64,000 nucleotides of DNA from Desulfobacteraceae bacterium (GTDB lineage: Bacteria; Desulfobacterota; Desulfobacteria; Desulfobacterales; JAABSP01), in contig JAABSP010000022.1 in the NCBI GenBank assembly GCA_011390345.1, positions 6,206 to 70,205 on the forward strand, in the 5' to 3' direction. Below, one piece after another: positions 21,396-36,738 of the stretch. Each line of letters opens with the position of its first letter. The stretch's first letter is position 1. The notes beneath the pieces are model-generated. The model worked only from the letters and a program-made list of their open reading frames with translations. It made no database searches and was not told the DNA's origin. Both the position numbers and the translations under genes were made by a program.

Positions 21396-21516
21396 TATAG
21401 CCTCCACTTTGAGAACCAAAGGGAAAGGAGGGATGCAGAAACCGCAGAACATGGAAGTTTTGCACAGGCAAAGGGCGATTGATTTTTGAAATCGGAGAAT
21501 GAAAGGAGGAGACCCG

Positions 21517-23016
21517 GTGGCTGATTACAAATGCGAACCCACCAAGTGGGTCGAGATGTCCCAGCCCGTCGACGGCGGCAGGGACACTTATCAGACAAAG
21601 AGCTGGCATCCGCCCAAGGAGAACTGGGGGCCTTTCACCACATCGGGCACAGCCCCGGTATGGTTTGCGGAGGCCAATGCCACCAACTGGACCGAGTCGA
21701 TGATCTGCAAGGCCAAGGATCTGTTCTACGAGGCCAAGCTGAATGAGTGCTTCGACAAAGGAGACGAGGTCGCTATCAAGATCCACTACGGCGAATGGAA
21801 CCGGACCGCGATCCTGCGGCCCGAATACATCGCGGCCATCGTGGAGGAGGTCAAAGCCTGCGGCGGCAACCCCTATGTGGTCAACGACACGACGTTGTCC
21901 TACCACATCTTCAATTCCATGGCCTATTCCCACTATCAGAAGGCCGGCGCGACCCGCCACGGGTACACCGACGCGACCTTCGGATGTCCGGTGGTCGTGG
22001 CCGACGGTTTTGCAGGTGAGGATGATTATCGGGTGGACATTCCCGACGGATTGATCCTCAAGGAGACCTACATCGGCCGGGCCGTCGCGGAGGCAGACGC
22101 GATGATCGTGCTGGCCCACGCCCGGGGGCACGCCATCACCATGTACGGCGGCGCGCTGAAGCAGCTCGGGATCGGGTGCCAGTCCAAGCGGGGCAAGTAC
22201 ATCACTCACCTGGCCCACTGGGGCGATCCCCATGATGCGATCGGCTGGCCCAAGTTTACGGACCAGTGTCCGGGCAAGGCGTGCAAGTTCCATCAGATGT
22301 GCGATGACTCCTGTCCCAGAGGCGCACATCATGTGGTGGAGCACGGCAAGGTCTGGGACCCCTCCAAGTGCCGTCTCTGCTACTCCTGTCAGGTGACCTG
22401 CATCTTTTCGGGCATGACCGGCATCACCTTTGAGGAGAACTACTTCCCCAATGCGATGATCGCACATGCGGATGCGGCCCTGGGCGCGCTCAAGTGCTTC
22501 GAGAAGGGGAAGGTCGGCTACATCAACCATGCCATTGACGTGGTTCCGGAGTGCGACTGCTTCCCGTGGGCCGGTCTTGCCATCTGCGCGGATGTGGGGC
22601 TTTTTGCCGGCAAGGATCTGGTGGCCGTGGAGATGGCGACTCTGGATGCCATCGACAAGATGGCCATCAGCCCGGGATCGGTGGCCGAGGAGAAGGGGTG
22701 CAAGCCCGGCGACGACAAGTTCCAGATGGTCAACGGCTTCAGCCCGAGGATCACCATGGCCGCGGCCGAAAAGATCGGACTGGGCGGCCAGAAGTATGAG
22801 CTGATCAACTACGAGCCGGTGCTCTCCCCGGAGAGCGCGGCCCGCTGGCAGGTCCGGGGCGCAGGCGGCGAAAAGGGCAAGGCGACTACGCTGCGACTGA
22901 GAGAGACGTTCCATCGGAATGATCTCGCCACCGAAGTGCAGCCCTTCAGGCGGACCGATTACAACAAGGAGTGGGTCTTCAGCGAGTGGAAGAAGTACGA
23001 TCCCTTCAGCAAATAG
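21517..23016 (+). CDS. DUF362-family protein with Cys-rich (ferredoxin-like) insert
   Basis: …GDEVAIKIHYGEWNRTAILRPEYIAAIVEEVKACGGNPYVVNDT… and …INHAIDVVPECDCFPWAG… fit DUF362. The Cys-rich insert is CPGKACKFHQMCDDSCPRG…CRLCYSCQVTC. I prefer the GTG at 21517, with AGGAGG 6 nt upstream, over the ATG at 21499. Confidence 0.75.
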   Translation: MADYKCEPTKWVEMSQPVDGGRDTYQTKSWHPPKENWGPFTTSGTAPVWFAEANATNWTESMICKAKDLFYEAKLNECFDKGDEVAIKIHYGEWNRTAILRPEYIAAIVEEVKACGGNPYVVNDTTLSYHIFNSMAYSHYQKAGATRHGYTDATFGCPVVVADGFAGEDDYRVDIPDGLILKETYIGRAVAEADAMIVLAHARGHAITMYGGALKQLGIGCQSKRGKYITHLAHWGDPHDAIGWPKFTDQCPGKACKFHQMCDDSCPRGAHHVVEHGKVWDPSKCRLCYSCQVTCIFSGMTGITFEENYFPNAMIAHADAALGALKCFEKGKVGYINHAIDVVPECDCFPWAGLAICADVGLFAGKDLVAVEMATLDAIDKMAISPGSVAEEKGCKPGDDKFQMVNGFSPRITMAAAEKIGLGGQKYELINYEPVLSPESAARWQVRGAGGEKGKATTLRLRETFHRNDLATEVQPFRRTDYNKEWVFSEWKKYDPFSK

Positions 23017-23136
23017 ACCCGGCAGGTGAGTTGTAGCTGATTGCAGGAGAAAAGCCGGGGGAGGCAATCTGCCTTCTCCGGCCCCTTTCCCGAGCATAAA
23101 AACCGAATTAAGATCGCAATCGGGAGACAGAGATCC

Positions 23137-24072
23137 ATGAGCGAAGTAGTATGGGTGGATACCCGGCAGATGAGCTTTGAAAATTCGATCCGTCACAAGC
23201 TTCTCCGCCTGTCCGAGGCCGCAGGGATCATCGAGGATCTTTTGGAATCGATGCAGGTGGCGGTGAAGATCAACACCGCGGAAGAGGGGTATGAGTATGG
23301 CCTTCGGCCCAACTTCATCCAGGTCTTTACTGAGGTCATGGAGGAGAAGACCCTCAAATGCCCCCTGATCTGTGACGGACAGCGTCTGGTGGACTACTGG
23401 CGAAAGGCCCGGGGGAATACCTTTCTGAAGACGGCCGGGGCCAGGGGATACAGCAAAGAGACTCTGGGAGGGCTTTTTCTCCTAAACGGCGGATTTTCGG
23501 GCGATGAGGGGGATCTTTATCCCTGCGGCTCGACCGAATCGGAGCTGGGCGGGGTCGAAGTGGGGGCCGCGGTCTGCCGGGCCGATGCGCTACGGGTGCT
23601 CTCCCATGTGACTTTGCACCCGCTCTTTGGAATAAATGGTGCGCTGTTGAACAGCGGGTTTGAATGTCTGTCGGGCAGGGCAAGGACCCGGGTGCTGCAG
23701 GGGTTGAGCCCTTATATCTTCAACGGCAGCCGGCCCGGAAGGGATCAGGTGAATGGATTTCAGCGGCGGGCTCTGGAGAGCTGTTTCGGGGTTCGGACCG
23801 CTGTTGAAGAGCGAATCTTTTACGTCAACTATCTCTGGGATGTTACGCCCCAGCCCGAATATTATCCTTTCAGCGAGGGGCCGGTGGCGGAGAATATCGG
23901 CTTTCTCGCCTCCAATGACCCGGTGGCCCTGGACGGCGCCACTTGGGCACTGATAACAAAACAGAATCCCGCAATCGAGGAGATGGTCGGTGTCGATGTT
24001 CCCGGTCTGATCCGAACAGCGGCCGATATGGGGCTGGGCAGTGCGGAATGGTCGATCCGGCAGATCTCCTGA
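23137..24072 (+). CDS. Second DUF362-family protein (no Fe-S insert)
   Basis: …MQVAVKINTAEEGYEYGLRPNFIQVFTEVMEE… and …ASNDPVALDGATWALI… are DUF362-like. I used the ATG at 23137 within ORF 23041..24072. Confidence 0.7.
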   Translation: MSEVVWVDTRQMSFENSIRHKLLRLSEAAGIIEDLLESMQVAVKINTAEEGYEYGLRPNFIQVFTEVMEEKTLKCPLICDGQRLVDYWRKARGNTFLKTAGARGYSKETLGGLFLLNGGFSGDEGDLYPCGSTESELGGVEVGAAVCRADALRVLSHVTLHPLFGINGALLNSGFECLSGRARTRVLQGLSPYIFNGSRPGRDQVNGFQRRALESCFGVRTAVEERIFYVNYLWDVTPQPEYYPFSEGPVAENIGFLASNDPVALDGATWALITKQNPAIEEMVGVDVPGLIRTAADMGLGSAEWSIRQIS

Positions 24073-24121: not shown

Positions 24122-25129
24122 ATGACGATGAACCGAAGCGAGTTCGTCGATCGCCAGAAACAGCAATTGATGAATGAGGGGGCCATCGCGGATGCCCTTC
24201 AGTATGTCCGGTACAAGATCGCGATCCTCTCCGGAAAGGGCGGCGTGGGAAAGACCGCGGCCACGGTGAACCTCGCGGCCGCACTGCAGAAGGCCGGGAA
24301 CCGGGTGGGGATCTTTGACGCGGATCTCCACGGCCCCAGCATTCCCAAGATGCTCGGGATCAAAAAGGAGCAGGCAAGGCTCAACGGCGCGTTCTGGCTC
24401 GATCCTGTGGTCACGGCAACTGGAATCAAGGCGCTCTCGGTTGCCCTCTTCTGGCCCGGGGAGATGACCCCGGTGATGTGGCGGGGCCAGACCAAGAGCC
24501 GCACCATTCGCCAACTCCTTTCTGCGGCCAAATGGGGGGGGCTCGACTATCTGCTGGTCGATCTTCCTCCGGGAACCGGGGATGAGCCTATCGCGATTTT
24601 AAAGTCGATCCCGGATCTGGACGGCGTCATCATCGTCACCACGCCCCAGGAGGTCTCCACCATGGTCTGCTCCAAGGCCATCAACGCCTCCGTCACACTG
24701 GGGGCCAAGGTGCTGGGCCTCATTGAGAACATGAGCCACTACACATGCAGTTGCGGTGATACGGTCTATCTCTTCGGTAGAGACAAGGGGAAACAGCTTG
24801 CGCGGATGATGGAGATCCCGTTTCTGGGGTCAGTCCCCATCGACCCGCAATTCTCCGAGGCGGCCGATACCGGGGTTCCGGTGGTCGATCTCCATCCCCA
24901 AAGCCTGACGGCCACTTCCTTTACCAGAATCGCGGATACCCTGAGCAGCCAACTCCCCCCAAAGGCGGTCAAGGAGGCCCCGCCCGAAGAGCACAAGCCC
25001 TGCCCCGGAGCCAGCCATCATCACGGCCACGGAGAGGGAAGTCACTGCAGCCACGGCCATATCCATGCCAGGCCCAAGGAGGAGGACGGGTGCGGGTGCG
25101 GACATGGCCATGAGCATCATCGGCATTGA
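24122..25129 (+). CDS. Mrp/NBP35(ApbC)-family P-loop ATPase with a C-terminal His/Cys-rich tail
   Basis: The deviant Walker A is ILSGKGGVGKT, followed by DLPPGTGDE and MSHYTCSCGD. The tail reads CPGASHHHGHGEGSHCSHGHIHARPKEEDGCGCGHGHEHHRH. Confidence 0.85.
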   Translation: MTMNRSEFVDRQKQQLMNEGAIADALQYVRYKIAILSGKGGVGKTAATVNLAAALQKAGNRVGIFDADLHGPSIPKMLGIKKEQARLNGAFWLDPVVTATGIKALSVALFWPGEMTPVMWRGQTKSRTIRQLLSAAKWGGLDYLLVDLPPGTGDEPIAILKSIPDLDGVIIVTTPQEVSTMVCSKAINASVTLGAKVLGLIENMSHYTCSCGDTVYLFGRDKGKQLARMMEIPFLGSVPIDPQFSEAADTGVPVVDLHPQSLTATSFTRIADTLSSQLPPKAVKEAPPEEHKPCPGASHHHGHGEGSHCSHGHIHARPKEEDGCGCGHGHEHHRH

Positions 25130-25287: not shown

Positions 25288-25614
25288 TTGAGCGATCAGA
25301 AGATGGGAACCCATTATGTGAGAGAGGTGTGTGAGATTTTCAGAAATGTGGCGGCAAAGAGCCCCTTTCCCGATGTCCAGGAGCGGCTGAACAAGATCGC
25401 AGACGAGCTGGAGCCGATCGCGACCAAGCTCTACTTCAAGACCCAGAAGGGAACCGAGGACATGAAGGAGCTGGCTGAGCAGGCACAGGATCTCGACGCG
25501 AAGCTCTCCGCATGCAAGGAGTCCGGAGAGGCCGATGCGGTCTGCAATCCCTTCTTCGTGGAGCTGGAGAAGATCATCAAGCACGTCAAGACCATGAAGG
25601 TACGGATGACCTGA
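25288..25614 (+). CDS. Hypothetical helical protein (108 aa)
   Basis: It is an ORF with AAGGAGG 7 nt upstream of a TTG start. I recognised no family. Confidence 0.5.
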   Translation: MSDQKMGTHYVREVCEIFRNVAAKSPFPDVQERLNKIADELEPIATKLYFKTQKGTEDMKELAEQAQDLDAKLSACKESGEADAVCNPFFVELEKIIKHVKTMKVRMT

Positions 25615-25626
25615 AGGAGATCTTCA

Positions 25627-26055
25627 ATGGAACAGCATGCGACGGCGCAGGAGCCGGCGGAACAGTGTCCGGAAGCTGTAGAGAATGGCGCAGGGATCAC
25701 CGAAGAGATGAGCCGGGAGATGGTCGAGGATATTACCCGGCTCGGCATTCGCACCGCGGTGCTGCTCAGAGGGGTGATGCTTCAGAAGGTGGATCGGGAG
25801 ACCCTCCGGTGGGGGCTGGACGAGCTGGGGGTGGATGATCTGATGGCGCGGTATATCGGCCCGCTGCTGAATGTACCGGATCATGTGCAACTGCTGAACC
25901 TGCTCTACCTCGTCTACGGCCTCCACGGACAGATCGACTATCAGATCCGGGAGTACGGGCTCGACTCTTTGAAGGATGACCTTCAGGAGATCAATTTCAG
26001 CCTGCAGCAGATCGGCGAGCAGTTCCGGCTCGAAGAGTTGAAGGTGGCGATTTAA
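25627..26055 (+). CDS. Hypothetical protein (142 aa)
   Basis: It is an intact ORF 12 nt after the previous stop. I recognised no family. Confidence 0.5.
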   Translation: MEQHATAQEPAEQCPEAVENGAGITEEMSREMVEDITRLGIRTAVLLRGVMLQKVDRETLRWGLDELGVDDLMARYIGPLLNVPDHVQLLNLLYLVYGLHGQIDYQIREYGLDSLKDDLQEINFSLQQIGEQFRLEELKVAI

Positions 26056-26094
26056 GAGATATTTGGGTAAAGGATTAGGAAAAGGAGCAAAAGG

Positions 26095-26907
26095 ATGAAA
26101 CTGAAAGAGAAGGTGGCCATCGTCACCGGCGGGGCAAGGGGCAACGGATTTGCCGCGGCAAAGTGCATGGCCCAAGAGGGTGCGCATATCGTCATCGCGG
26201 ATATCTGCGAGGATATGGAGACGATTCCGTATAAGATGACCACCGCAGAGGGGATGGAAAAGGCGGTGGGAGAGATCCAGTCCCTGGGCGTGAAGGCGCT
26301 TGGAATCAAGTGCGACGTGCGCAAGGCGGCCGATGTGGAGCAGATGGTGGAAAAGGTGATCGCCGAGTTCGGGAAGATCGACATCCTGGTCAACAACGCA
26401 GGCAACACCTCTATGGTCGCGATCGCGGATATGGACGAGAAGACCTGGGATGAGGTGCTCGACACTCATCTCAAAGGGATGTACCTCTGCTGCCGGTATG
26501 CGCTGCCCCATATGATCAACGCCCATTCCGGATGCATCATCAGCATCTCCTCGGTGGGAGGGCAGCGGGGATTCGGCATGGGAGGCCACTACTGTGCAGC
26601 CAAGCACGGGATCATCGGCCTGAACAAATCGATCGCGATGGAGGTGGCCGATCACAATATTCGCGCCAATGTGGTCTGTCCGGGAACGGTCTGGACAGAC
26701 ATGATGAAGGGGATCGCGTCCTATTTTGGAATGGACGACGAGGCCGAGGCCAAAGAGCAGTTCTTCGCGGGACACATGATCAAAGATCCCGAGGTCGCGC
26801 CGGAGGACATCGGCCGGGCCGTCTGCTGGCTGGCCACCGACGACACGCGGTGCATCACCGGAAACATGATCACCGTGGACGGCGGCTGGACTGCGCAGGC
26901 CCCATAA
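26095..26907 (+). CDS. SDR-family oxidoreductase of the mycofactocin-coupled type
   Basis: TGGARGNG is the Rossmann motif. The characteristic insertion IVIADICEDMETIPYKMTTAEGMEKAV resembles the DIC…VPYPMATPEDL insert of mycofactocin-associated SDRs. The catalytic motif is YCAAK. The gene lies immediately upstream of mftA. Confidence 0.8.
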   Translation: MKLKEKVAIVTGGARGNGFAAAKCMAQEGAHIVIADICEDMETIPYKMTTAEGMEKAVGEIQSLGVKALGIKCDVRKAADVEQMVEKVIAEFGKIDILVNNAGNTSMVAIADMDEKTWDEVLDTHLKGMYLCCRYALPHMINAHSGCIISISSVGGQRGFGMGGHYCAAKHGIIGLNKSIAMEVADHNIRANVVCPGTVWTDMMKGIASYFGMDDEAEAKEQFFAGHMIKDPEVAPEDIGRAVCWLATDDTRCITGNMITVDGGWTAQAP

Positions 26908-26949
26908 ACCCTCAATCTTTAATTTATCGGAAAGGAGGAAGAGAGACGT

Positions 26950-27090
26950 ATGGAAAAAGAGGCGAGAGAGAAGAACCTGCAGGAGAAGGAGACGGAGCAG
27001 CGTCCCCAGGATACCGTAGAGATTCCGGCCATCCTCGAGGAGGTCAATATCGAGGAGCTTGCTGTGGACGGTATCTGCGGCATCTACTAA
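26950..27090 (+). CDS. mftA: Mycofactocin-type precursor peptide (46 aa), not in the ORF track
   Basis: My own translation gives MEKEAREKNLQEKETEQRPQDTVEIPAILEEVNIEELAVDGICGIY*. AGGAGG lies 11 nt upstream. The C-terminus parallels the canonical MftA …IDGMCGVY. mftB and mftC follow directly. Confidence 0.8.
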   Translation: MEKEAREKNLQEKETEQRPQDTVEIPAILEEVNIEELAVDGICGIY

Positions 27091-27132
27091 GGAAGAAAGA
27101 CCAGACCGAAAACTTCTTCTGTGCCAAAAGGT

Positions 27133-27160
27133 TTCCGGCCTCCTTTCGGGGAGGTCGGAA
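27133..27160 (+). terminator. Stable hairpin just after the precursor gene (attenuator or RNA-stabiliser candidate)
   Basis: ttccggcctcc-tttcgg-ggaggtcggaa forms an 11-bp stem with one G-U pair. No strong T-run follows, so read-through into mftB is likely. Confidence 0.45.
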
Positions 27161-27230
27161 GCCTTCGCTTTCAAAATGGCATGGGGCCATGATGGAGGCA
27201 TGACCATATCGGAGATTCAAGGAGAGAGGA

Positions 27231-27512
27231 ATGCGATCCAATACGGTTTACCACCTGAAGACCGGGGTGCAGGTCCGGCCCGAGGTCTTCGGACTCCTCT
27301 TCTACAACTATCGGGGGCCCAGGCTCTATTTCGTGCCGTCCAAGGATCTGATCCCGTCGGAATTCTTCGGGGGAAAGGAGACCGTGGGGGATCTCGTGAC
27401 GGGCATCTGCAAACGGATGCCGTGGCCCGGGGATGTTGTGGGAAAAAAGATCCAGGAGATTCTGGACATGCTGGAAGGAAGGGAGCTGATCTATGGGGAA
27501 TCAGTATGTTGA
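27231..27512 (+). CDS. mftB: Mycofactocin biosynthesis chaperone MftB (PqqD-like RRE)
   Basis: …VQVRPEVFGLLFYNYRGPRLYFV… parallels the mycobacterial MftB segment VRPEPFGALLYHFGTRKLSFL. The size is 93 aa. Confidence 0.8.
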   Translation: MRSNTVYHLKTGVQVRPEVFGLLFYNYRGPRLYFVPSKDLIPSEFFGGKETVGDLVTGICKRMPWPGDVVGKKIQEILDMLEGRELIYGESVC

Positions 27513-28575
27513 TATGGGGCTTTCGGCCCCGGTAAACGTCACCTGGGAGGTCACCTTCGGCTGCAATCTCTCCTGTGTCCACTGCCTCTCCGATTCGGGA
27601 AGGCGGCGCGAAGGAGAGCTGACCACAGAGCAGTGCCGGGCGGTGATCGACGATCTTTCCCGAAACCATGTCTTTCAGCTCAACATCGGCGGGGGCGAGC
27701 CCTTCTCCCGCCCCGATTTTCTCGATCTGATGGATTACGCGCACGACCGGGGGATCGTCACCTGCATCAGCACCAACGGAACTTTGATCGACGAGAAGAT
27801 CGCCCGGGGTCTCGATCACCGGCTCGTTTACATCCAGGTGAGTCTGGACGGGGCAACCCCGGAATCCAACGATGCGATCCGGGGGAAGGGGAGTTTTGCC
27901 AGCGTGATGCGGGCATTGGAGCATCTTAAGGGGAGGGGGATCGAGGTGAGCATCAACTGTGTGCTGACCCGGCTCAGCTTTCCGGAGCTGGATAAACTCC
28001 ACGATCTGGCCGCGCATTACGGGGCAAAGCTGCGGGTTTCAAGGTTCCGGCCTTCGGGAAGGGGCAAGGATTCCTGGTCCGATCTCAACCTCTCCAGGGA
28101 TCAGATGGTATCCTTTTCCGAATGGCTCAACAGCCATCTTGGGGTTTCCACGGGAGATTCCTTCTTTTCCGTCTCAAGTGAGGAGCGAAGGTCATTGGGG
28201 CTCAACATGTGCGGCGCGTGCAAGCTCACCTGCTGCGTATCCCCCCAGGGGGAGGTCTACCCTTGCGCATTTTTGCAGGATGCCGATTTTCTTTCGGGAA
28301 GGGTTCCGGAGGACGACTTTGCCCGGATCTGGCGGGAGTCGCGCGTATTCCACTCCTTTCGGGAACTGGAGATCAAATCCTGCGAGAGCTGCCACCGGTT
28401 CGATCTCTGTCACGGAGGGTGTCCCGCGATCGCCTACCATACCCAGCGAAAGCTCGGTGTTCCGGACCCGGGATGTCTGGTAAACTGCGTAACGGTTAAA
28501 TCGATGAACACATTGGGAAATGAGTTGAAGAAAAAAGCAGGCGACGATATTCGTCCTGCGGCCGGATACGCATAG
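27493..28575 (+). CDS. mftC: Mycofactocin radical SAM maturase MftC (rSAM plus SPASM)
   Basis: GLSAPVNVTWEVTFGCNLSCVHCLSDSGRRREGELTTEQC…NIGGGEPFSRPDF is very close to the MftC N-terminal region. The SPASM cysteines are CGACKLTCCVSPQGEVYPC…C..C…CHGGC. An alternative start is the ATG at 27514. Confidence 0.9.
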   Translation: MGNQYVDMGLSAPVNVTWEVTFGCNLSCVHCLSDSGRRREGELTTEQCRAVIDDLSRNHVFQLNIGGGEPFSRPDFLDLMDYAHDRGIVTCISTNGTLIDEKIARGLDHRLVYIQVSLDGATPESNDAIRGKGSFASVMRALEHLKGRGIEVSINCVLTRLSFPELDKLHDLAAHYGAKLRVSRFRPSGRGKDSWSDLNLSRDQMVSFSEWLNSHLGVSTGDSFFSVSSEERRSLGLNMCGACKLTCCVSPQGEVYPCAFLQDADFLSGRVPEDDFARIWRESRVFHSFRELEIKSCESCHRFDLCHGGCPAIAYHTQRKLGVPDPGCLVNCVTVKSMNTLGNELKKKAGDDIRPAAGYA

Positions 28576-28577
28576 AG

Positions 28578-30101
28578 ATGCGTGCAGGAATTCTCAGCGG
28601 AGAGCTGACCCTCTCCCCCGGGGTCTCCCTTTTCCAGGGGCCCGACGCGGGGGTGCTGCTCCAGTCCGATCCGATGCGGGCTATCAAGGTCAACGCTGCG
28701 GCCGCGGGGATTCTTGCCCGCTGTCGAAAGGGATGGCGTATCGACGAAAACGCGGACGATCCGCTGCTGAACGCGGCGCTGCCCATGCTCGACCTTTTCA
28801 TTCAGGCCGGCATTCTTCAATGGAGCCCGCCCTCCGAGGGATTCACCCCCTTTGTCAGCATCGTGGTTCCGGTCTTCAACAGGGCTTCGGAGATCGAGGC
28901 CTGCATCCGCTCCCTGCTCGATCTCGATTATCCGGAGGATCTGCGGGAGATCATCGTGGTGGACGATGCTTCGGTCGATTCGACCCCGGATATGGTTTCG
29001 AAGTATCCGGTGCAATTGTTGAGAATGGCGGAAAACCGGGGCCAGTCGGCCGCGCGGAACCGGGGGGTGGAAGCGGCAAGAGGGGAGATCATCGCGTTCA
29101 CCGACAGCGACTGCATCGCAGATCCGAACTGGCTCAAAGATATTCTGCCCTTTTTTCGGGATGAACGGATCGCACTTGCCGGTGGCCTGGTGGATGCCTA
29201 TTACAAAAAGAGCTTTCTGGACCGGTACGAGGCGGCCCAATCCCCCCTCAACATGGGGGAAAAGCCGCTGATCGGTGCCGGAGACCGCTCCGTCTTCTAT
29301 GTCCCGACCTGCAACATCCTTTTCAGAAAGTCGGCCTATGGGGAGATCGGGGGCCTGAACGAGTCGATCCGGGTTGGGGAGGATGTGGATCTCTCCTGGC
29401 GCCTGCTGGCCCGGGGCCACCGGCTCCTCTATCTGCCCAGGGGCCGGGTACTTCACAAACACCGTTCCCGCTTCAAAGATGCCTTCTGCCGCCGCTTCGA
29501 CTACGGCACTTCCGAGCCGGCCCTCTATCTTGCGCATCAGCGGACCATCAAGCGGTTTCCGAGACAGCAGGGGGGTCTGCCATTCTTTGCTCTCTGCGGC
29601 ATGGGCTGTTTGACACTTCCCTGGCTCTTCTTTCCCGGGGCCGGACTGATTCTGCTGGGAGAGGCGCTTTACAAGCGGCGCCAGGCGTCAAAGATGCTGG
29701 ACGCGCCCCTCGCGTTTTACCCCATCTTCAAAGCAGTCCTCCGAAGCCGGTTTACCCTGACCCATTATCTCGCGCTTCACCTGACCCGCTACTATCTGCT
29801 GCCCATGATCGCGCTGGGGCTGATATTTCCGAAAACGATTCCAATACTTTCAGGGCTTGCATTTTTCCCCGCACTTGTGCTCTATTATCGGAAACGGCCG
29901 GATCTCAACTTTCCCCTCTTTGCCCTTTTTTTTCTGACGGAACAGGCATTTTATCAGGCCGGTGTGATGCGGGGATGTTTCAAGACCAGGTGCTTCAGAC
30001 CCTATCGGATCACCTTTTCCGGCGCGGGTTTTCTGAAGAAGAGCCCGGAAAAATGGCGAAAGATATGGCCATTTCGAAAAAAGATGGGGGAGAGCGTTTG
30101 A
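28578..30101 (+). CDS. mftF: Mycofactocin-system glycosyltransferase MftF (GT2 with C-terminal membrane region)
   Basis: The GT2 core is VSIVVPVFNRASEIEACIRSLL…IIVVDDASVDST…ENRGQSAARNRG…FTDSDC…GEDVDLSWR. It has an N-terminal PqqD-like region and C-terminal TM helices, and it sits right after mftC. Confidence 0.8.
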   Translation: MRAGILSGELTLSPGVSLFQGPDAGVLLQSDPMRAIKVNAAAAGILARCRKGWRIDENADDPLLNAALPMLDLFIQAGILQWSPPSEGFTPFVSIVVPVFNRASEIEACIRSLLDLDYPEDLREIIVVDDASVDSTPDMVSKYPVQLLRMAENRGQSAARNRGVEAARGEIIAFTDSDCIADPNWLKDILPFFRDERIALAGGLVDAYYKKSFLDRYEAAQSPLNMGEKPLIGAGDRSVFYVPTCNILFRKSAYGEIGGLNESIRVGEDVDLSWRLLARGHRLLYLPRGRVLHKHRSRFKDAFCRRFDYGTSEPALYLAHQRTIKRFPRQQGGLPFFALCGMGCLTLPWLFFPGAGLILLGEALYKRRQASKMLDAPLAFYPIFKAVLRSRFTLTHYLALHLTRYYLLPMIALGLIFPKTIPILSGLAFFPALVLYYRKRPDLNFPLFALFFLTEQAFYQAGVMRGCFKTRCFRPYRITFSGAGFLKKSPEKWRKIWPFRKKMGESV

Positions 30102-30108
30102 ACGGAAG

Positions 30109-30206
30109 TTTGAATACAACTTTGAATACAACAGGGGAAATGGGCGCGGATCGCGGCATGGATCACAGCACGGATCGGAAAACGGATCGGAAAACGGATC
30201 ACAGCA
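30109..30206. repeat. Phased 12-bp repeats between mftF and larE (2 x tttgaatacaac, then five GGATC cores exactly 12 bp apart)
   Basis: The GGATC cores start at 30148, 30160, 30172, 30184 and 30196. The units are arranged A-B-B-A (ggatcacagca / cggatcggaaaa x2 / cggatcacagca) and end at the larE ATG. Confidence 0.9.
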
Positions 30207-31039
30207 TGAACCGCAAATACGAGGCGCTCAAAGAAATCCTGCGGCAGATGGATCGGGTCCTGCTTGCCTTTTCCGGCGGGGTGGACAGCGCGTTTCTGCT
30301 GCGGGTCGCATCTGAAGAATTGAACGGAAATCTTCTTGCAGTGACAGCCATTTCAGAGACCACCCCCGCACATGAGCAGGAGGAGGCCGTTCGAATTGCA
30401 GCACTCTGCAACGCTCAGCACCTGACGGTGGAGACCCATGAGCTGAATGACCCCGAGTTCACATCGAACCCGGAAGAGAAGTGCTACATCTGCAAAAAGT
30501 ACCGCTTCGGCCTGCTGGCGGATCTGGCGGTGGAGAAGGGGTATCCGGTCGTGATCGACGGCACCAACGCGGATGACAGCAAGGATTTCCGGCCCGGGAT
30601 GCGGGCTCTTCGGGAACTCTCGGTGCGAAGCCCCCTGGCCGAGGCCGGGCTGACCAAATCCGAGATCCGGGCACTTTCAAAACAGCTCGACCTGCCCACA
30701 TGGGACAAGCCGGCCTATGCCTGTCTGGCCACCCGCATCCCCTGCGGCAGTTCCATCACCGGGGAAAGGCTTTCCCGGATCGACAGAGCCGAAGACTTTT
30801 TAAGGGGGTTGGGCGTCAAAGGTCAGGTGCGGGTTCGGGATTACGGGGAGATGTGCCGCATCGAAAGCGCGTCCGACATGATCCAGACGATCGCGGCCCC
30901 CGAAATCCGGGAGCAGATCGTGAACCATTTTTCAAAAATCGGATATAAGTTCGTGACCATCGACCTTGCCGGATACCGGATGGGAAGCGTGGTGCGGCAG
31001 TCTGCGCCGGAACAGAATGGATCGAAACAAGGCCGATAA
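30206..31039 (+). CDS. larE: LarE, ATP-dependent sulfur transferase of nickel-pincer nucleotide (NPN) cofactor synthesis
   Basis: The PP-loop is LLAFSGGVDSAFLL. The Cys set (CYICKK, …YACLATRIPCGS) is of the type reported for Fe-S-binding LarE homologues. I chose the ATG at 30206 so the N-terminus matches LarE spacing before SGGxDS. Confidence 0.85.
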   Translation: MNRKYEALKEILRQMDRVLLAFSGGVDSAFLLRVASEELNGNLLAVTAISETTPAHEQEEAVRIAALCNAQHLTVETHELNDPEFTSNPEEKCYICKKYRFGLLADLAVEKGYPVVIDGTNADDSKDFRPGMRALRELSVRSPLAEAGLTKSEIRALSKQLDLPTWDKPAYACLATRIPCGSSITGERLSRIDRAEDFLRGLGVKGQVRVRDYGEMCRIESASDMIQTIAAPEIREQIVNHFSKIGYKFVTIDLAGYRMGSVVRQSAPEQNGSKQGR

Positions 31040-31115: not shown

Positions 31116-31919
31116 GTGATGGACAGCCAATATCTGAAGGGCCTGCTGGAGCAGGTGAAGAGCGGCCGTATGAATACGGACGCGGCCATGGAAGCCTTGA
31201 AGGATCTCCCCTTCGAGGATCTCGGATATGCCAAGGTGGACAACCACCGGTGCGTGCGAAACGGTGTGCCCGAGGTGATCTACTGCGAAGGAAAGACCGT
31301 CTCCCAGATCAAAGGGATCATCGCCCGGATCGCGCGGCACAATTCCAATATACTGGCCACCCGCGCGGACCCGGAGGTCTATGAGGGCATCCGGGAGGAG
31401 ATCGAAGACTGCGTTTACCATGAGATGGCCCGGATCGTTGTGGTGAAGCCGAAGGAAGTCGAGAGCATCGGCAATATCGCGGTGGTCTCTGCGGGAACCT
31501 CGGACATCCCGGTGGCCGAAGAGGCCGCAATCACAGCCCAGACTTTGGGCAATCACGTCAACCGGATCTATGATGTGGGCGTCGCGGGTATCCATCGGAT
31601 TCTCCATGCCAGAAAGGATCTTTTTCAGGCCAATGTGGCCGTGGTGGTAGCGGGGATGGAGGGGGCACTGGCCAGCGTCGTGGGCGGACTCGTCTCCTGC
31701 CCGGTCATCGGGGTTCCCACCAGCATCGGATACGGGGCCAGCTTCGGCGGGATCTCGGCCCTGCTGACCATGCTCAACTCCTGTGCATCCGGGGTCTCTG
31801 TGGTCAACATCGACAACGGCTTCGGCGCAGGATATCAGGCGAGCCTCATCAACCGGACCGCCCTGAAATCCCTGCCCAAATCGGACACCGAACCGGTCTC
31901 CCTTGCAAAGGTCTGCTGA
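31116..31919 (+). CDS. larB: LarB, NaAD carboxylase/hydrolase (PurE-like)
   Basis: …LPFEDLGYAKVDNHRCVRNGVPEVIYCEGKT… and …VVSAGTSDIPVAEEA…VAGMEGALASVVGG… are typical LarB segments. Confidence 0.9.
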   Translation: MMDSQYLKGLLEQVKSGRMNTDAAMEALKDLPFEDLGYAKVDNHRCVRNGVPEVIYCEGKTVSQIKGIIARIARHNSNILATRADPEVYEGIREEIEDCVYHEMARIVVVKPKEVESIGNIAVVSAGTSDIPVAEEAAITAQTLGNHVNRIYDVGVAGIHRILHARKDLFQANVAVVVAGMEGALASVVGGLVSCPVIGVPTSIGYGASFGGISALLTMLNSCASGVSVVNIDNGFGAGYQASLINRTALKSLPKSDTEPVSLAKVC

Positions 31920-31923
31920 AAAG

Positions 31924-33123
31924 ATGAAAATCGCCTATTTCGACTGTTTTGCCGGGGCCAGCGGCGACATGATTCTCGGCGCGCTGCTGGATGCGGGTCT
32001 GGAACTGGAAAGCCTGAAAAATGAGGTTGCAAAGATAGGCCTCGACCGGTATGATCTCGGAGTGGAACCCGTGGTGAAACGGGGGATCGGCGGGACCAAA
32101 GCCATCGTCTCCGTGGACGAGGATCATCATGGCCACCACCATCGCCACCTGCGCCATATCGAGGAGATCATCAACGGCAGCACCCTCGATGACCGGGTCA
32201 AGGAAAAAAGCCTTGCCATCTTCCGCCGCCTTGCCGAGGCCGAAGCCAATGTCCATCGCACCTCTGTCGAGAGTGTCCATTTTCATGAAGTGGGCGCGAT
32301 GGATGCTATCCTCGATGTGGTCGGATCTGTGATCGGCTTTCATCTGCTGGGGATCGAAAGGATCTACTGCTCGCCGTTCCATGTGGGATGCGGGACCATT
32401 CATTGTGCCCATGGTCTGCTTCCGGTTCCTGCCCCGGCAACCGCAGCGCTGACGGTCGGGTTTCCGGTCTATTCTAACGGCGTAAAGGGGGAACTGCTCA
32501 CGCCCACGGGCGCGGCCATATTGACGACTCTGGCCCAGGGTTTTGGGCCCATGCCGGCCATGACCGCGGAACAAATCGGCTACGGCGCAGGGACAGCAGA
32601 TCCCGAGGAGATTCCCAACCTGCTGCGGGTGACCATCGGGGAGAACGCTTCAAGTGATGGGCTGGACCAATATGAGGCCGAATCCATCTGCGTTCTGGAG
32701 ACCAATATCGACGACATGAACCCCCAGCTTTATGAAAATCTGATCGAGAAGGTACTGGCCGCGGGCGCGGTCGATGTCTCTCTTGCCCCGGTTCAGATGA
32801 AGAAGAACAGGCCCGGCACAATGGTGACGGTCCTCTGTTCCCACGACCGTCTTGCAACCCTTTCCGATCTGCTGCTGAGGGAGACGACATCCATCGGACT
32901 TCGCTGGCGGACCGATTCGAGGATCATGGCCCGGCGGACCTTCCGGGAAATCGACACCCCCTACGGCCCCATAAAGGTGAAGGTGGCCCAAAAAGGGGAG
33001 GAGATCATCAATATAATGCCCGAATATGAAGACTGCAGACGACTGGCCGCGGAAAAGGGGGTTCCCCTGAAAACCGTGATCGAGGCCGCTGCTGTTGCTG
33101 CAAAGTCGGATTTGGAGCCATAA
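31924..33123 (+). CDS. larC: LarC, nickel insertase for the NPN cofactor
   Basis: MKIAYFDCFAGASGDMILGALLDAG… is typical LarC. It has the His-rich region DEDHHGHHHRHLRH, followed by …HFHEVGAMDAILDVVG… and …MKKNRPG…. Confidence 0.9.
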   Translation: MKIAYFDCFAGASGDMILGALLDAGLELESLKNEVAKIGLDRYDLGVEPVVKRGIGGTKAIVSVDEDHHGHHHRHLRHIEEIINGSTLDDRVKEKSLAIFRRLAEAEANVHRTSVESVHFHEVGAMDAILDVVGSVIGFHLLGIERIYCSPFHVGCGTIHCAHGLLPVPAPATAALTVGFPVYSNGVKGELLTPTGAAILTTLAQGFGPMPAMTAEQIGYGAGTADPEEIPNLLRVTIGENASSDGLDQYEAESICVLETNIDDMNPQLYENLIEKVLAAGAVDVSLAPVQMKKNRPGTMVTVLCSHDRLATLSDLLLRETTSIGLRWRTDSRIMARRTFREIDTPYGPIKVKVAQKGEEIINIMPEYEDCRRLAAEKGVPLKTVIEAAAVAAKSDLEP

Positions 33124-33160
33124 GCAAAGAGGTTTAACCCAGAAAAAAAAGGGAGGAAAA

Positions 33161-34897
33161 ATGGACAAGATTCTTCGCATCAACATGGGACCGGACGGCG
33201 CACCGAGCGTAAAGGAAGAGGGCTTGGGAGACTACGCCGGACTCGGCGGAAGGGGCATGACATCGTCCGTGATCGGCAAAGAGGTGCCGGCGGACAGTCA
33301 CCCCCTCGGCGCAGAGAACAAGCTGGTCATCTCCCCGGGGCTGCTCTCCGGAACGGCCGCGGCTATGTCGGGCCGGATCTCGGTCGGCTGCAAAAGCCCC
33401 CTCACCGGAACCATCAAGGAGTCCAACGCGGGGGGTCAGGCCGCGCAGGTCATGGCCCGCCTAGGATATGCGGCCATCATTCTGGAGGGAAAGCCGAAAG
33501 CCGACACGCTCTACAAACTGATCATCAACAAGGACGGGGTGAAGCTGGAAGAAGACAACAGCCTGAAACTCCTAAACAACTATGAACTGGTGGATAAGCT
33601 CAAGGAGGCCTACGGCGAGAAGATCACCTGCATGACCATCGGATCTGCCGGAGAGCGGAAGCTCGGTTCGGCCACCATCGCGGTCACCGATATGGAGGTT
33701 CGCCCCACCCGCCACTGCGGCCGGGGCGGCACAGGAGCTGTGATGGGCGCCAAGGGCCTCAAGGCGATCATCTTCGACGACTCCGGCATGAAGATGCGCG
33801 CCCCCAAGGACCCCGAGGCATTCAAGGCCGCGAACAAGCGTTTCGTCGAGGGTCTGCGGAAGCACCCGGTCACGGGCGAAGGGCTTCCGGCCTACGGAAC
33901 CAACGTGCTGACCAACGTCCTCTCCGAGGCCGGCGGCTACCCCACCAACAACTTCAGCAAGGGAACCTTCGAAGGCGCATCAAAGATTTCCGGCGAGGCC
34001 CAGGCCGAGCTGGAGACCCAGAGGGGCGGTTCGGCCACCCACGGGTGCCATCGGGGATGCATCATCCGCTGCTCCGGAACCTTCAATGACAAGAACGGCC
34101 GATTCCTGACCAAGCAGCCCGAGTACGAGACCGTATGGGCCCACGGCGGCAACTGCGGGATCGACGATCTCGACGCGATCGCCATGATGGACCGGCTCGA
34201 CGATGATTACGGTCTGGACACAATCGAGATGGGCGCGAGCGTGGCTGTTGCAATGGATGCCGGGATCGCAAAGTTCGGCGACGCGGAGGCCGCGATCAAC
34301 CTCGTCAAGGAGGTGGGCAAAGGCACGGAGCTGGGCCGGATTCTCGGCAGCGGCGCGGCCGTGACGGGCCGGGTCTTCGGCGTGGAGCGGATTCCGGTGG
34401 TCAAGGGGCAGGCCATGCCGGCCTACGACCCCAGAGCTGTGCAGGGCATCGGCGTCACCTACGCCACCTCCACGATGGGCGCAGACCATACGGCCGGCTA
34501 CGCGGTGGCCACCAACATCCTCAAGGTCGGCGGCGATGTGGACCCCCTGAAGCCCGAAGGACAGGTGGAGCTTTCCAGAAACCTGCAGGTCGCGACGGCC
34601 GCGGTCGATGCCACCGGGATGTGCCTCTTCATCGCGTTTGCTGTCCTGGATCAGCCCGACACCTTCCAGGCCCTGATCGATATGCTCAATGCCTTCTACG
34701 GCCTCGAGATGACCGCAGACGACGTGAGCGAGCTGGGGAAGAAGATTCTGAAAGAGGAGCGGGAGTTCAACAAAAGGGCCGGCTTCACCGCAGAGCATGA
34801 CCGGCTGCCGCGCTTCTTCATTACCGAGCCTGTTGCGCCGCACAACGTCACGTTCCAGGTCTCGGACAAGGAACTCGACAACCTCTTCAACTGGTAA
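33161..34897 (+). CDS. aor: Aldehyde:ferredoxin oxidoreductase (tungsten/pterin AOR family)
   Basis: MDKILRINMGPDG…GLGGRGMTSSVI…, …GRGGTGAVMGAKGLKAI…, …CHRGCIIRC… and …CLFIAF… are AOR-family features. GGGAGG lies 6-7 nt upstream of the ATG at 33161. Confidence 0.9.
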   Translation: MDKILRINMGPDGAPSVKEEGLGDYAGLGGRGMTSSVIGKEVPADSHPLGAENKLVISPGLLSGTAAAMSGRISVGCKSPLTGTIKESNAGGQAAQVMARLGYAAIILEGKPKADTLYKLIINKDGVKLEEDNSLKLLNNYELVDKLKEAYGEKITCMTIGSAGERKLGSATIAVTDMEVRPTRHCGRGGTGAVMGAKGLKAIIFDDSGMKMRAPKDPEAFKAANKRFVEGLRKHPVTGEGLPAYGTNVLTNVLSEAGGYPTNNFSKGTFEGASKISGEAQAELETQRGGSATHGCHRGCIIRCSGTFNDKNGRFLTKQPEYETVWAHGGNCGIDDLDAIAMMDRLDDDYGLDTIEMGASVAVAMDAGIAKFGDAEAAINLVKEVGKGTELGRILGSGAAVTGRVFGVERIPVVKGQAMPAYDPRAVQGIGVTYATSTMGADHTAGYAVATNILKVGGDVDPLKPEGQVELSRNLQVATAAVDATGMCLFIAFAVLDQPDTFQALIDMLNAFYGLEMTADDVSELGKKILKEEREFNKRAGFTAEHDRLPRFFITEPVAPHNVTFQVSDKELDNLFNW

Positions 34898-35528: not shown

Positions 35529-35608
35529 CGGAAGGGATAGCTTCTTCGGGCTTCAGGGCTGCCACCCTTTGGGGGAAATCACCTTTCTCCCGATCCCAGG
35601 GCCGGCAG

Positions 35609-36733: not shown

Positions 36734-36738
36734 GCCCT

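Follow-up and report, generated by a model that had tools for sequence, protein, structure and literature searches.

The mycofactocin cassette and its variant-type precursor

The stretch of Desulfobacteraceae DNA that was analysed (the window, 64 kb) contains five genes arranged back to back on the + strand at positions 26095-30101, encoding a mycofactocin-coupled SDR, MftA, MftB, MftC and MftF. All five exceeded the curated NCBIfam cut-offs (Table 1), confirming the identities and order originally predicted. The MftA peptide, MEKEAREKNLQEKETEQRPQDTVEIPAILEEVNIEELAVDGICGIY, matched the variant-type precursor model, while the canonical model TIGR03969 gave only 22.6 bits, below its cut-off of 25. 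The canonical mycofactocin system of Mycobacterium and other Actinomycetota (MftA-B-C-D-E-F plus MftG, MftR and MftM) has the same ...DGxCGxY core and shares MftB, MftC, MftF and a nicotinoprotein SDR with the window; however, the penultimate residue of the window precursor is Ile rather than Val.

The MftA C-terminus, AVDGICGIY, was invariant in 20 genome loci and was also found in most metagenome members of the clade. The invariance of these last nine residues against a variable leader is the pattern expected if what matters is the core dipeptide at the C-terminus and the site recognised by MftC. MftC was 46% identical to characterised-type MftC, and both the C24xxxC28xxC31 motif and the SPASM cysteines were invariant relative to the canonical enzyme. 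The SDR occupied the same position in related loci, with orthologues 72-82% identical, and the 3' end of mftB overlapped the start of mftC there as in the window. Many of the related loci with a long mftA-mftB spacer had a strong hairpin at the same place as the stem-loop in the window; the hairpin sequences were not conserved. MftF, which had been taken as a fixed part of the cassette, proved to be variable, being present in ~16 and absent from ~14 loci of the clade.

The region thus encodes an intact mycofactocin system of the variant type modelled by NF040489 and NF040490, in which mftF is optional. No sequence-level difference separates the window MftA and SDR from these two families, whose models name proteins only. 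The variant itself is not new, as a 'variant-type mycofactocin precursor' and the matching SDR subfamily are both curated entries of NCBIfam. A literature search found no account of the NF040489/NF040490 system, its lack of MftD and MftE or its genomic context.

Table 1. Features of the mycofactocin locus and its flanks, with positions in the window
Feature	Position	Strand	Evidence
DUF362a, LarA-fold, inserted 2x[4Fe-4S]-like Cys domain	21499..23016	+	Pfam PF04015, 130.7 bits
DUF362b, paralogue without Lys/His cofactor motif	23041..24072	+	Pfam PF04015, 55.5 bits
Mrp/ApbC/NUBPL-type P-loop ATPase	24122..25129	+	PF10609, 281.9 bits; NF041136 MrpORP, 284 bits, below its cut-off
Small protein 'a', ~105 aa, ending ...VKTMKVRMT	25288..25614	+	tblastn homology to counterpart genes
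Small protein 'c' (hyp142; orthologues ~120 aa)	25627..26055	+	orthologues 65-73% identical in 9 loci
Mycofactocin-coupled SDR, subfamily 3	26095..26907	+	NF040490 SDR_subfam_3, 522 bits, cut-off 385
mftA, variant-type precursor, 46 aa, ending AVDGICGIY	26950..27090	+	NF040489, 49.5 bits, cut-off 30
17-bp stem-loop directly 3' of mftA	27128..27165	+	RNA fold of 27088-27232, -56.6 kcal/mol, z = -3.95
mftB, chaperone	27231..27512	+	TIGR03967, 45.1 bits, cut-off 33
mftC, radical SAM/SPASM maturase	27493..28575	+	TIGR03962, 392.8 bits, cut-off 265
mftF, glycosyltransferase, variable component	28578..30101	+	TIGR03965, 341.6 bits, cut-off 280
larE, ATP-dependent sulfur transferase for NPN cofactor, three-Cys type	30140..31039	+	TIGR00268, 303 bits, cut-off 150
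larB	31116..31919	+	NF033503, 298.7 bits, cut-off 175
larC (LarC1 and LarC2 domains)	31903..33123	+	TIGR00299, 226 bits; NF052512, 150.6 bits
Aldehyde:ferredoxin oxidoreductase (AOR) family protein	33095..34897	+	PF02730, 191.7 bits; PF01314, 281.2 bits
hyp176, conserved hypothetical	34998..35528	+	orthologues 39-49% identical in L016, L017, L018, L021
FIST-domain sensor protein	35330..36733	+	PF08495, PF10442; syntenic
PAS hybrid histidine kinase	36739..38772	+	NCBIfam histidine-kinase and PAS matches; syntenic

Absence of MftD and MftE

Unlike the canonical system, the window has no MftD, MftE, MftG, MftR or MftM. Ordinarily, the cofactor is released by MftE and activated by MftD. Essentially all window ORFs of at least 150 aa were scanned with Pfam and NCBIfam models, with no match to Creatininase (PF02633) or FMN_dh (PF01070), and a six-frame tblastn search of the window, seeded with MftD, E, G, R and M proteins of annotated canonical clusters, gave a best E of 0.09. 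When the MftD and MftE HMMs were run with hmmsearch --max on every stop-to-stop segment of at least 40 aa, only the positive-control loci were matched. The original observation that mftD and mftE are missing from the 64 kb was therefore correct.

The survey of related mft loci that had been proposed extended this result. The positive controls were found, but neither the window nor ~355 kb of related loci yielded MftD, E, G, R or M. Loci without MftD and MftE comprised 21 genome loci, Desulfonema limicola and ~13 metagenome loci of the clade, together with ~20 loci of a sister clade of anaerobes; the distances covered were -26/+34 kb in the window and up to +/-10 kb in the relatives, less on short contigs. 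Among the loci surveyed in metagenomes, the canonical ones with IDGMCGVY carried MftD and MftE, nearly always adjacent, whereas both anaerobe tiers lacked them. The absence from the locus is lineage-wide and, set against the presence of both genes in canonical loci, identifies a catalogued but uncharacterised variant. Clusters of mft genes without D and E were already noted in 2011.

One explanation is an ordinary split system, with MftE and MftD (or at least MftE) elsewhere on the chromosome, the DUF362, Lar and AOR genes as mere neighbours and a pathway that is canonical except for Ile in place of Val. Partly split canonical clusters are known, since Thermomicrobium roseum has mftD with no mftE within 17 kb, and Haloterrigena turkmenica has mftE with no mftD nearby; creatininase-family and FMN-dehydrogenase genes are also common in bacteria. 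Against a split stand the uniform absence from the ~35 clade and ~20 sister-clade loci, compared with the near-constant adjacency in canonical loci, and the position of the cassette, always in the middle of a DUF362/Lar block, an association repeated in a Clostridia locus. A split system is accordingly considered unlikely.

The conserved block also contains no peptidase candidate. The lack of both a peptidase and a deaminating oxidase, together with the dispensability of MftF in half of the clade, would fit a product other than a free small-molecule cofactor. The peptide modified by MftC would then either stay intact or be converted to something different from a keto-amide, and would serve as a peptide-bound carrier or as a RiPP of some other kind. 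This is judged quite improbable, as the neighbouring SDR falls in a subfamily curated as mycofactocin-coupled, the last nine residues of MftA are invariant against a variable leader, and MftC is 46% identical to the characterised type with all cluster ligands kept.

The DUF362 module and the lar genes

Upstream of the cassette, in every locus with enough flank, lies the gene for DUF362a. Its AF2 model (pLDDT 87) was compared with the PDB by Foldseek, and the top 19 matches were without exception LarA or its homologues (E from 4e-6 to 1.4e-3). Alignment of DUF362a with LarA by hhalign paired H211, K221 and H237 with His174, Lys184 and His200 of LarA without gaps, albeit with weak statistics (E 0.21 and 0.011). 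By this alignment, K221 and H237, which are invariant in 38 homologues, are the equivalents of the cofactor-tethering Lys and the Ni-binding His of LarA. DUF362 and LarA belong to one Pfam clan (PMC11770544). From its sequence and predicted fold, DUF362a is a candidate nickel-pincer nucleotide (NPN)-binding catalytic subunit.

DUF362a nevertheless differs from LarA. Its Pfam family is PF04015, a sister of PF09861, and it has no counterpart of the second catalytic residue, His108. Furthermore, it has a 2x[4Fe-4S]-like domain as an insert, the Cys motifs C257..C272 and C291xxC294xxC297xxxC301, and a CxC motif, and it is paired with a paralogue that lacks the Lys and with an ATPase of the Mrp type. 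Together these differences suggest a redox enzyme and not a racemase.

In the paralogue, DUF362b, which is syntenic in all related loci and likely starts at ATG 23137, Asn replaces the tether Lys; the ferredoxin insert seen in other lineages has been lost in the window's clade. The Mrp-like ATPase, also syntenic, has a His/Cys-rich C-terminal tail (...HHHGHGEGSHCSHGHIH...GCGCGHGHEHHRH). Small protein 'a' had no significant Pfam family, its tblastn homologues being in related loci and the Peptococcaceae locus L030. Small protein 'c' matched neither Pfam nor NCBIfam, and distant homologues were found in Pelotomaculum, Peptococcaceae and loci L031 and L112-L114.

Downstream of mftF, LarB, LarC and LarE all exceeded equivalog cut-offs. 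LarE, which likely starts at ATG 30140 with GGGGAA just before it, has the CxxC plus C motif. Because the window contains no LarA proper, DUF362a is left as the one candidate client nearby for LarB, LarC and LarE. The AOR gene that follows is syntenic in most related loci. The hypothetical protein hyp176 had no family match in Pfam or NCBIfam, and the true start of the FIST-domain protein is probably near 35550.

Conservation of the gene block

The predicted boundaries, 26095-30101, were too narrow, as the functional unit appears to span ~21499 to ~38772. In Desulfobacterales-type genomes, the mft cassette lies within a block of ~17 same-strand genes, and wherever the flanks were visible it was found between the DUF362a-DUF362b-Mrp module and the lar genes, usually larE-larB-larC. 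In most cases AOR and the FIST/histidine-kinase sensor come next, but some loci lack them. The order DUF362a-DUF362b-Mrp-small genes-SDR-MftA-B-C-(F)-LarE-LarB-LarC-AOR was found in 21 species-level genomes, and the same order in the complete genome of Desulfonema limicola; larE, larC or AOR was absent in a few genome loci (e.g. L011, L012, L015 and L020). The order was kept even where identity fell to ~56% for DUF362a and ~27% for DUF362b. Scans for promoters and terminators yielded no signal above chance; co-transcription is therefore inferred from strand and spacing only.

An independent link between the DUF362 module and mft genes is provided by a Clostridia MAG (L114), with the order DUF362a-DUF362b-Mrp-small c-small a-LarE-MftA(...AIDGICGVY)-SDR-MftB-MftC-OYE. 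The module was also found without adjacent mft genes, in Pelotomaculum (L026) and in L030, L031, L112 and L113; in other lineages such modules adjoin LarA proper, AORs, aldehyde dehydrogenase or Fe-ADH, and may have a general role in alcohol/aldehyde metabolism.

These mft-free modules are what would be expected if the cassette and the DUF362/Lar/AOR genes were functionally independent. The DUF362 complex would then be an enzyme that depends on NPN or Fe-S, its substrate being some 2-hydroxy acid or an aldehyde-related compound, while the variant mycofactocin would serve the SDR alone and be matured and recycled by other enzymes. Such independence is considered somewhat doubtful, given that the cassette separates the DUF362 module from larEBC in every clade member with visible flanks and that the genes are interleaved in a different phylum, LarE preceding MftA. 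Moreover, Pelotomaculum, where the module stands alone, also counts as a mycofactocin organism (PMC3023750). The DUF362/lar context of the mft cassette appears to be new.

Comparison with related cofactor systems and proposed pathway

The anaerobe-type clusters of the sister clade (tier 2 of the survey) resemble the window in having MftA-B-C(-F) without MftD and MftE, in adjoining alcohol dehydrogenases and in embedding a redox module of their own; they may be the non-actinobacterial systems of Haft 2011 (Geobacter, Firmicutes). In contrast to the window, their MftA keeps CGVY, their MftC is only 52-58% identical, and their module is flavin-based, consisting of TIGR03997 'mycofactocin system FadH/OYE oxidoreductase 2' and EtfAB/FixCX. 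No OYE or ETF genes were found in the window. PQQ biosynthesis (PqqA/PqqD/PqqE) similarly converts a ribosomal peptide to a redox cofactor by means of a PqqD-like chaperone and a radical-SAM/SPASM enzyme, and the PqqE model was a weaker match of the window MftC (118.6 bits); however, the core residues, chemistry and accessory enzymes differ.

LarA-type NPN enzymes act on 2-hydroxy acids by abstracting a hydride from the alpha-carbon, and the mycofactocin redox couple is an alpha-hydroxy-amide/alpha-keto-amide pair. By this chemical logic, which is in part inference, the LarA-like DUF362 proteins may supply the missing redox chemistry of a system without MftD and MftE. The reading that the nickel-pincer module makes or recycles a mycofactocin-type cofactor without O2 explains the data best and is held to be probable, with modest confidence. 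MftB would present MftA to MftC, which would decarboxylate the C-terminal Tyr and cross-link it to the beta-carbon of Ile (Val in the canonical system), giving an ethyl/methyl analogue of the AHDP lactam. Release of the lactam would fall to a peptidase whose gene lies outside the cluster, and the alpha-keto-amide redox centre would be made and/or recycled by an O2-independent enzyme, the leading candidate being the DUF362a/b complex carrying the nickel-pincer cofactor from LarB, LarC and LarE. The mature cofactor would be used by the SDR (alcohol to aldehyde), after which AOR would convert the aldehyde to the acid.

It had originally been suggested that the core is handled differently in this lineage, perhaps by the upstream proteins. 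This gained real support from the lack of MftD and MftE in every homologous locus examined and from the strict conservation of the two LarA-fold DUF362 proteins, the Mrp-like ATPase and the two small proteins, with larE, larB and larC downstream. The OYE/ETF genes at the equivalent place in the sister clade suggest module swapping for one role.

The cassette is a variant-type mycofactocin system

The genes of the cassette were called from a list of ORFs combined with an NCBIfam scan at curated cut-offs. The gene calls of the original prediction, SDR, MftA, MftB, MftC and MftF in that order on the + strand, proved exact, with all five scoring above the NCBIfam cut-offs. Because the matches exceed curated thresholds and the genes form a tight co-directional array, chance ORFs can be ruled out and the five are genuine genes on the sequence evidence. 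Minus-strand ORFs overlapping the cluster, of which two examples are listed in the table, were rejected as spurious, having no family matches and lying opposite strongly supported genes.

Features of the window, with model scores and cut-offs
Feature	Position	Strand	Assignment or description
First low-GC island	13200-15450		GC 0.46-0.49
PIN-domain gene	14604-15005		Within first low-GC island
Second low-GC island	20400-21500		GC 0.46-0.49
Minus-strand ORF	21370-23196	-	Spurious
Conserved block	~21499-38772	+	DUF362a to PAS histidine kinase
DUF362a	21499-23016	+	DUF362, PF04015 (Pfam)
DUF362b	23041-24072	+	DUF362, PF04015 (Pfam)
Mrp/ApbC-like ATPase	24122-25129	+	
C-terminal tail of the ATPase	~25010-25129	+	His/Cys-rich
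Minus-strand ORF	25624-27207	-	Spurious
SDR	26095-26907	+	NF040490 mycofactocin-coupled SDR subfamily 3 (SDR_subfam_3), 522 bits (cut-off 385)
MftA	26950-27090	+	NF040489 variant-type mycofactocin precursor, 49.5 bits (cut-off 30)
Stem-loop	27128-27165		Perfect 17-bp stem
MftB	27231-27512	+	TIGR03967, 45.1 bits (cut-off 33)
MftC	27493-28575	+	Radical SAM/SPASM maturase, TIGR03962, 392.8 bits (cut-off 265)
MftF	28578-30101	+	Glycosyltransferase, TIGR03965, 341.6 bits (cut-off 280)
LarE	30140-31039	+	TIGR00268, 303 (cut-off 150)
LarB		+	NF033503, 298.7 (cut-off 175)
LarC		+	TIGR00299, 226 (cut-off 90); NF052512, 150.6 bits (cut-off 50)

The 46-aa MftA peptide (MEKEAREKNLQEKETEQRPQDTVEIPAILEEVNIEELAVDGICGIY) ends in VDGICGIY. 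Against the canonical precursor model TIGR03969, which has IDGxCGVY at the C-terminus, it scored 22.6 bits, under the cut-off of 25. Both elements that define the variant-type system in NCBIfam, the NF040489 precursor and an adjacent NF040490 SDR, were found, together with MftB, MftC and MftF of the canonical system. In an alignment with the four annotated MftC sequences of Thermomicrobium, Mycolicibacterium, Tsukamurella and Haloterrigena, the window MftC was 46% identical and the CxxxCxxC and SPASM auxiliary-cluster cysteines were invariant.

The stem-loop (fold z = -3.95) lies directly 3' of the mftA stop codon, in the 140 nt between mftA and mftB. A strong hairpin of different sequence is found at this position in many relatives whose spacer is long, and none was seen in relatives where mftB follows mftA within about 22 nt. 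By analogy with other RiPP operons, the hairpin may have a role in setting the precursor:enzyme ratio.

Absence of MftD and MftE from the window and the lineage

What is known of mycofactocin biology comes almost wholly from aerobic mycobacteria, where MftE releases the core, MftD makes the redox centre and MftG carries out re-oxidation. In nearly all ORFs of at least 150 aa in the 64 kb and in smaller ORFs within the gaps, Pfam or NCBIfam scans detected neither a domain of the creatininase family nor one of the FMN-dependent alpha-hydroxyacid dehydrogenases. An ORF-independent test used MftD, MftE, MftG, MftR and MftM proteins from annotated, plasmid-borne canonical clusters as seeds. The best E-value for these seeds in six-frame tblastn was 0.09, and hmmsearch --max with the MftD and MftE HMMs against all stop-to-stop segments returned matches in control loci alone (E ~1e-124 to 1e-238). 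The claim that the 64-kb window lacks mftD and mftE was therefore borne out by all three approaches; MftE (TIGR03964) and MftD (TIGR03966) were likewise absent from all related loci, while the positive controls were detected.

A genome scan with the window MftC returned 21 species-level genomes at 72-83% identity, all of them Desulfobacterales-type MAGs, and a protein search with the same query added over 120 clusters with an identity of 74% or higher, one of which belongs to the isolate Desulfonema limicola (complete 6.9-Mb genome). The MftA C-terminus AVDGICGIY was invariant in the genome loci that reach the upstream region (20 of 20). None of MftD, E, G, R or M was found in any related genome locus by tblastn and HMM searches, and genes for a creatininase or an FMN dehydrogenase were likewise missing from the D. 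limicola locus. In a co-occurrence table from 2025, D. limicola is entered as MftC-positive and MftG-negative, with no further comment (PMC11778925 supplement). A metagenome scan using a mixed MftC alignment as query returned 80 loci, which were sorted into three tiers.

Tiers of MftC loci from the metagenome scan
Tier	MftC identity to window	MftA C-terminus	Context	MftD/E
1, clade of the window	71-78%	CGIY	As in window	None
2, sister anaerobe clade	52-58%	DG[IV]CGVY	MftB-MftC-OYE-EtfA-FixC-FixX-EtfB-MftF, alcohol dehydrogenases upstream	None in up to 21 kb
3	44-51%	IDGMCGVY	MftD, E, F, R, M, G adjacent	Present

Tier 3 loci from the same scan carry MftD/E, so the survey can detect them where they are present. 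The survey of mftC neighbourhoods in related taxa, which had been proposed with the original prediction, thus found the same lack in the genome loci, in the D. limicola locus and in tier 1. Judged from gene content, the absence characterises the lineage as a whole and sets apart two entire branches of the MftC tree; MftE and/or MftD could be encoded elsewhere in the genome. Two tier 1 loci differed at the MftA C-terminus in the full DUF362/Lar context, L042 with VDGVCGIY (~9195-9222) and L043 with IDGICGVY (~9220-9247), the latter having the canonical Val. The switch between Ile and Val thus does not follow the context in every case.

The existence of the variant as such is already catalogued, since the window locus belongs to the NCBIfam 'variant-type' family; clusters lacking MftD/E were noted in 2011, and an OYE-type partner is already named in TIGRFAMs. 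The lack of MftD/E is thus real yet less singular than it first appeared, and the context is the more interesting. No paper was found on this variant, whether on the system itself, the Ile in its core, the optional nature of MftF or the DUF362/Lar/AOR embedding, nor any joining mycofactocin with nickel-pincer/Lar genes, Desulfonema or Desulfobacterales.

The cassette is embedded in a conserved block with variable MftF

Wherever the flanks of a related locus extend far enough, the gene order was DUF362a-DUF362b-Mrp-like ATPase-small a-small c-SDR3-MftA-MftB-MftC-[MftF]-LarE-LarB-LarC-AOR-hypothetical-FIST sensor-PAS histidine kinase, where DUF362a and DUF362b are paralogues, small a and small c are short conserved genes, LarE/B/C are enzymes of nickel-pincer nucleotide (NPN) biosynthesis and AOR is an aldehyde:ferredoxin oxidoreductase. 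The genes are co-directional, and the order is retained where identity has fallen to ~56% for DUF362a and ~27% for DUF362b; larE, larC, AOR or downstream genes were missing in a few related loci. The borders first assigned to the system (26095-30101) were thus too narrow, the cassette being embedded in this larger block. That the genes form an operon is suggested by strand, spacing and synteny; searches for promoters and terminators over 20.3-39 kb did no better than chance and are uninformative on this point.

MftF was present in ~16 loci of the clade (among them the window, L001-L008, L013, L017 and L020) and missing from ~14 (L009-L012, L014-L016, L018, L019, L021, L029, L036, L042 and L043), in which LarE usually follows directly after MftC. 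Because MftF is missing from about half of the clade loci, glycosylation is not a fixed part of the variant. This contrasts with the 'perfect agreement' in occurrence of MftC, MftF and MftA in a 2011 report.

All three Lar proteins scored above their equivalog cut-offs; LarA proper, the NPN-dependent lactate racemase, was not found in the window. The window LarE has a CxxC and a distant Cys (EKCYICKK ... YACLATR), which we take to be the pattern of the Fe-S-cluster-dependent (non-sacrificial) LarE and which would suit an anaerobe. The tail of the Mrp/ApbC-like ATPase, HHHGHGEGSHCSHGHIH...GCGCGHGHEHHRH, is reminiscent of nickel metallochaperones; this protein could supply DUF362a with Ni or the cofactor instead of Fe-S clusters.

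In a second sub-clade (L005, L007, L011, L013, L017 and L020), an extra small gene of ~96-105 aa lies between small a and small c; its product combines a GGTDC(T/S)G(T/S)CHHRK(P/H)GEFHCH motif with a winged-helix-like C-terminus, and the gene is missing in the window. Some relatives have further radical-SAM/SPASM genes within 10 kb of the block (406-2652 in D. limicola, L029; 19369-20364 in L010), ~27% identical to MftC where measured.

DUF362a is predicted to resemble LarA

The DUF362 family and the LarA N-terminal family are placed in one Pfam clan (CL0471), and DUF362 was used as the outgroup in a 2024 study of the lactate racemase superfamily (PMC11770544). DUF362a matched PF04015 alone, with no match to Pfam Lar_N (PF09861) or LarA_C. 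Searches of PDB sequences with DUF362a, DUF362b and a DUF362a profile gave weak ferredoxin-domain matches and no LarA, so structure prediction was required to reveal the relationship. The AF2 model of DUF362a, built from a 38-sequence alignment of database homologues, had a pLDDT of 87 and a pTM of 0.87. When this model was searched against the PDB with Foldseek, the top 19 matches were all LarA or LarA-homologue nickel-pincer enzymes (E 4e-6 to 1.4e-3, probability 1.00), with unrelated folds beginning at E ~2e-2. DUF362a is accordingly predicted to have the LarA-like two-domain fold.

For profile alignment, the L. plantarum LarA (identical to PDB 5HUQ) was used as reference. With hhalign, a single ungapped block paired DUF362a residues 191-238 with LarA 154-201, and the register was repeated with a two-sequence LarA profile; the alignment E-values, 0.21 and 0.011, were weak. 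Within the block, H211, K221 and H237 were aligned with LarA His174, Lys184 and His200, which are the catalytic residue, the cofactor tether and the nickel ligand, respectively. Across the 38 DUF362a homologues, K221 and H237 were invariant and H211 nearly so. The fold, the register and the invariance combined point to LarA-like cofactor-site residues in DUF362a. The second catalytic His of LarA, His108, had no counterpart in DUF362a and was aligned to 'ADGF'; a single-His LarA-like enzyme is present in the PDB (9q3k).

DUF362a also has an inserted domain in which there are two cysteine motifs of the ferredoxin type as well as a conserved CxC. DUF362b has Asn at the position of the putative cofactor-tethering Lys and also lacks the His; in the sub-clade of the window it has lost a ~47-aa 2x[4Fe-4S] ferredoxin insert that is kept in other lineages (compared: L005, L007, L020, L026, L030 and L031). 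The simplest reading of these sequences is that LarB/C/E supply the nickel-pincer nucleotide to DUF362a, and DUF362a/b would then be an Fe-S-linked redox enzyme and not a racemase.

Relationship between the DUF362/Lar module and mycofactocin

Several loci have the five-gene module with no mft genes beside it, among them one in Pelotomaculum thermopropionicum, one on a Peptococcaceae contig and others on contigs with LarA proper, AORs, an aldehyde dehydrogenase or an Fe-ADH. These occurrences would suit a module that is independent of mycofactocin and merely adjacent to it in the window. We consider independence the less probable reading, since in the clade of the window the cassette always lies between the module and the lar genes, and three further observations point the same way.

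Firstly, Pelotomaculum is itself a mycofactocin organism (PMC3023750). In P. thermopropionicum SI (L026; AP009389.1 2728523-2749866), the genes after DUF362a-DUF362b-Mrp code for an extended SDR, two small proteins, LarB and LarC; no mft gene intervenes, so the mft cluster of this known carrier must be elsewhere. The locus is flanked by an Fe-ADH, a GAF histidine kinase and a sigma54 activator upstream, and by ThiS- and molybdopterin-related genes downstream. Secondly, a Clostridia MAG (L114; JAJZTU010000072.1, 2603-12482) interleaves both gene sets in another order and at much lower identity (MftC 42% identical): sigma54 regulator-DUF362a-DUF362b-Mrp-small c-small a-LarE-MftA(...AIDGICGVY)-SDR-MftB-MftC-OYE-OYE, where the sigma54 genes upstream form a two-component pair.

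Thirdly, the sister tier that lacks MftD/E has a different redox module, OYE with ETF/FixCX, at the equivalent place. The tier 2 examples (L060, L061, L062, L065, L067, L056 and L057) contain, in this order, a Zn-ADH, an Fe-ADH, MftA(CGVY), MftB, MftC, an OYE, EtfA-like and FixC-like proteins, a FixX-like ferredoxin, an EtfB-like protein and MftF. The OYE scored 951 bits (cut-off 793) against TIGR03997, 'mycofactocin system FadH/OYE family oxidoreductase 2'. The window differs in lacking this oxidoreductase: neither TIGR03997 nor TIGR03996 is represented, and no Oxidored_FMN or ETF domain was found in any scanned ORF. In Haloterrigena, ETF/Fix genes adjoin mftF. The swapped modules fit interchangeable electron-transfer or activation units for one cofactor, and functional coupling of the DUF362/Lar module with mycofactocin is on balance the favoured interpretation. 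In L060, a second radical-SAM/SPASM gene was observed after the tier 2 set.

Proposed chemistry and significance

From established MftC chemistry, the window MftC would oxidatively decarboxylate the C-terminal Tyr and join it to the beta-carbon of the preceding Ile. Ile, like Val, has a tertiary beta-carbon, and the reaction would yield the AHDP lactam in an ethyl/methyl analogue form. No hydrolase for release of the lactam is conserved in the block; small a, small c and hyp176 were considered as candidate peptidases and rejected, as none has a hydrolase signature.

In LarA-type enzymes, the nickel-pincer cofactor accepts a hydride that is abstracted from the alpha-carbon of a 2-hydroxy acid, and the mycofactocin redox couple is an alpha-hydroxy-amide/alpha-keto-amide. 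DUF362a is therefore a chemically sensible candidate for generating or recycling the keto-amide centre, from which electrons would exit through its Fe-S clusters; the putative outcome is a free redox-active keto-amide cofactor. Conversion of an alcohol to the aldehyde by the SDR, and of the aldehyde to the acid by the AOR, would complete a catabolic route for which the FIST/histidine-kinase pair may serve as sensor. That an NPN-loaded, Fe-S-wired DUF362a/b acts on the mycofactocin alpha-hydroxy/keto-amide centre in anaerobes, or makes it from the amine, replacing MftD and/or MftG, is a tentative proposal that we rate as rather unlikely. The argument for an O2-independent replacement draws on general family knowledge, with no statement in PMC8406134 that MftD needs O2.

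A large, environmentally abundant group of sulfate-reducer type thus keeps MftA/B/C and a mycofactocin-type SDR without MftD/E/G nearby, with the core changed from Val to Ile and glycosylation optional. The conserved DUF362/LarBCE embedding offers a concrete candidate for the missing chemistry and is, to our knowledge, the first strong genomic hint that DUF362 proteins use the nickel-pincer cofactor. If DUF362a/b does act on mycofactocin as proposed, it would be the first non-racemase nickel-pincer enzyme, would give a function to the large DUF362 family and would link two rare cofactors in one pathway. Desulfonema limicola, which is culturable and has a complete genome, carries the same block.

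Low-GC islands

Two islands of low GC were observed in the window, which elsewhere has a GC of ~0.58. In the first, the PIN-domain gene is preceded by a 119-aa ORF, and the two are probably a VapBC-type toxin-antitoxin pair.
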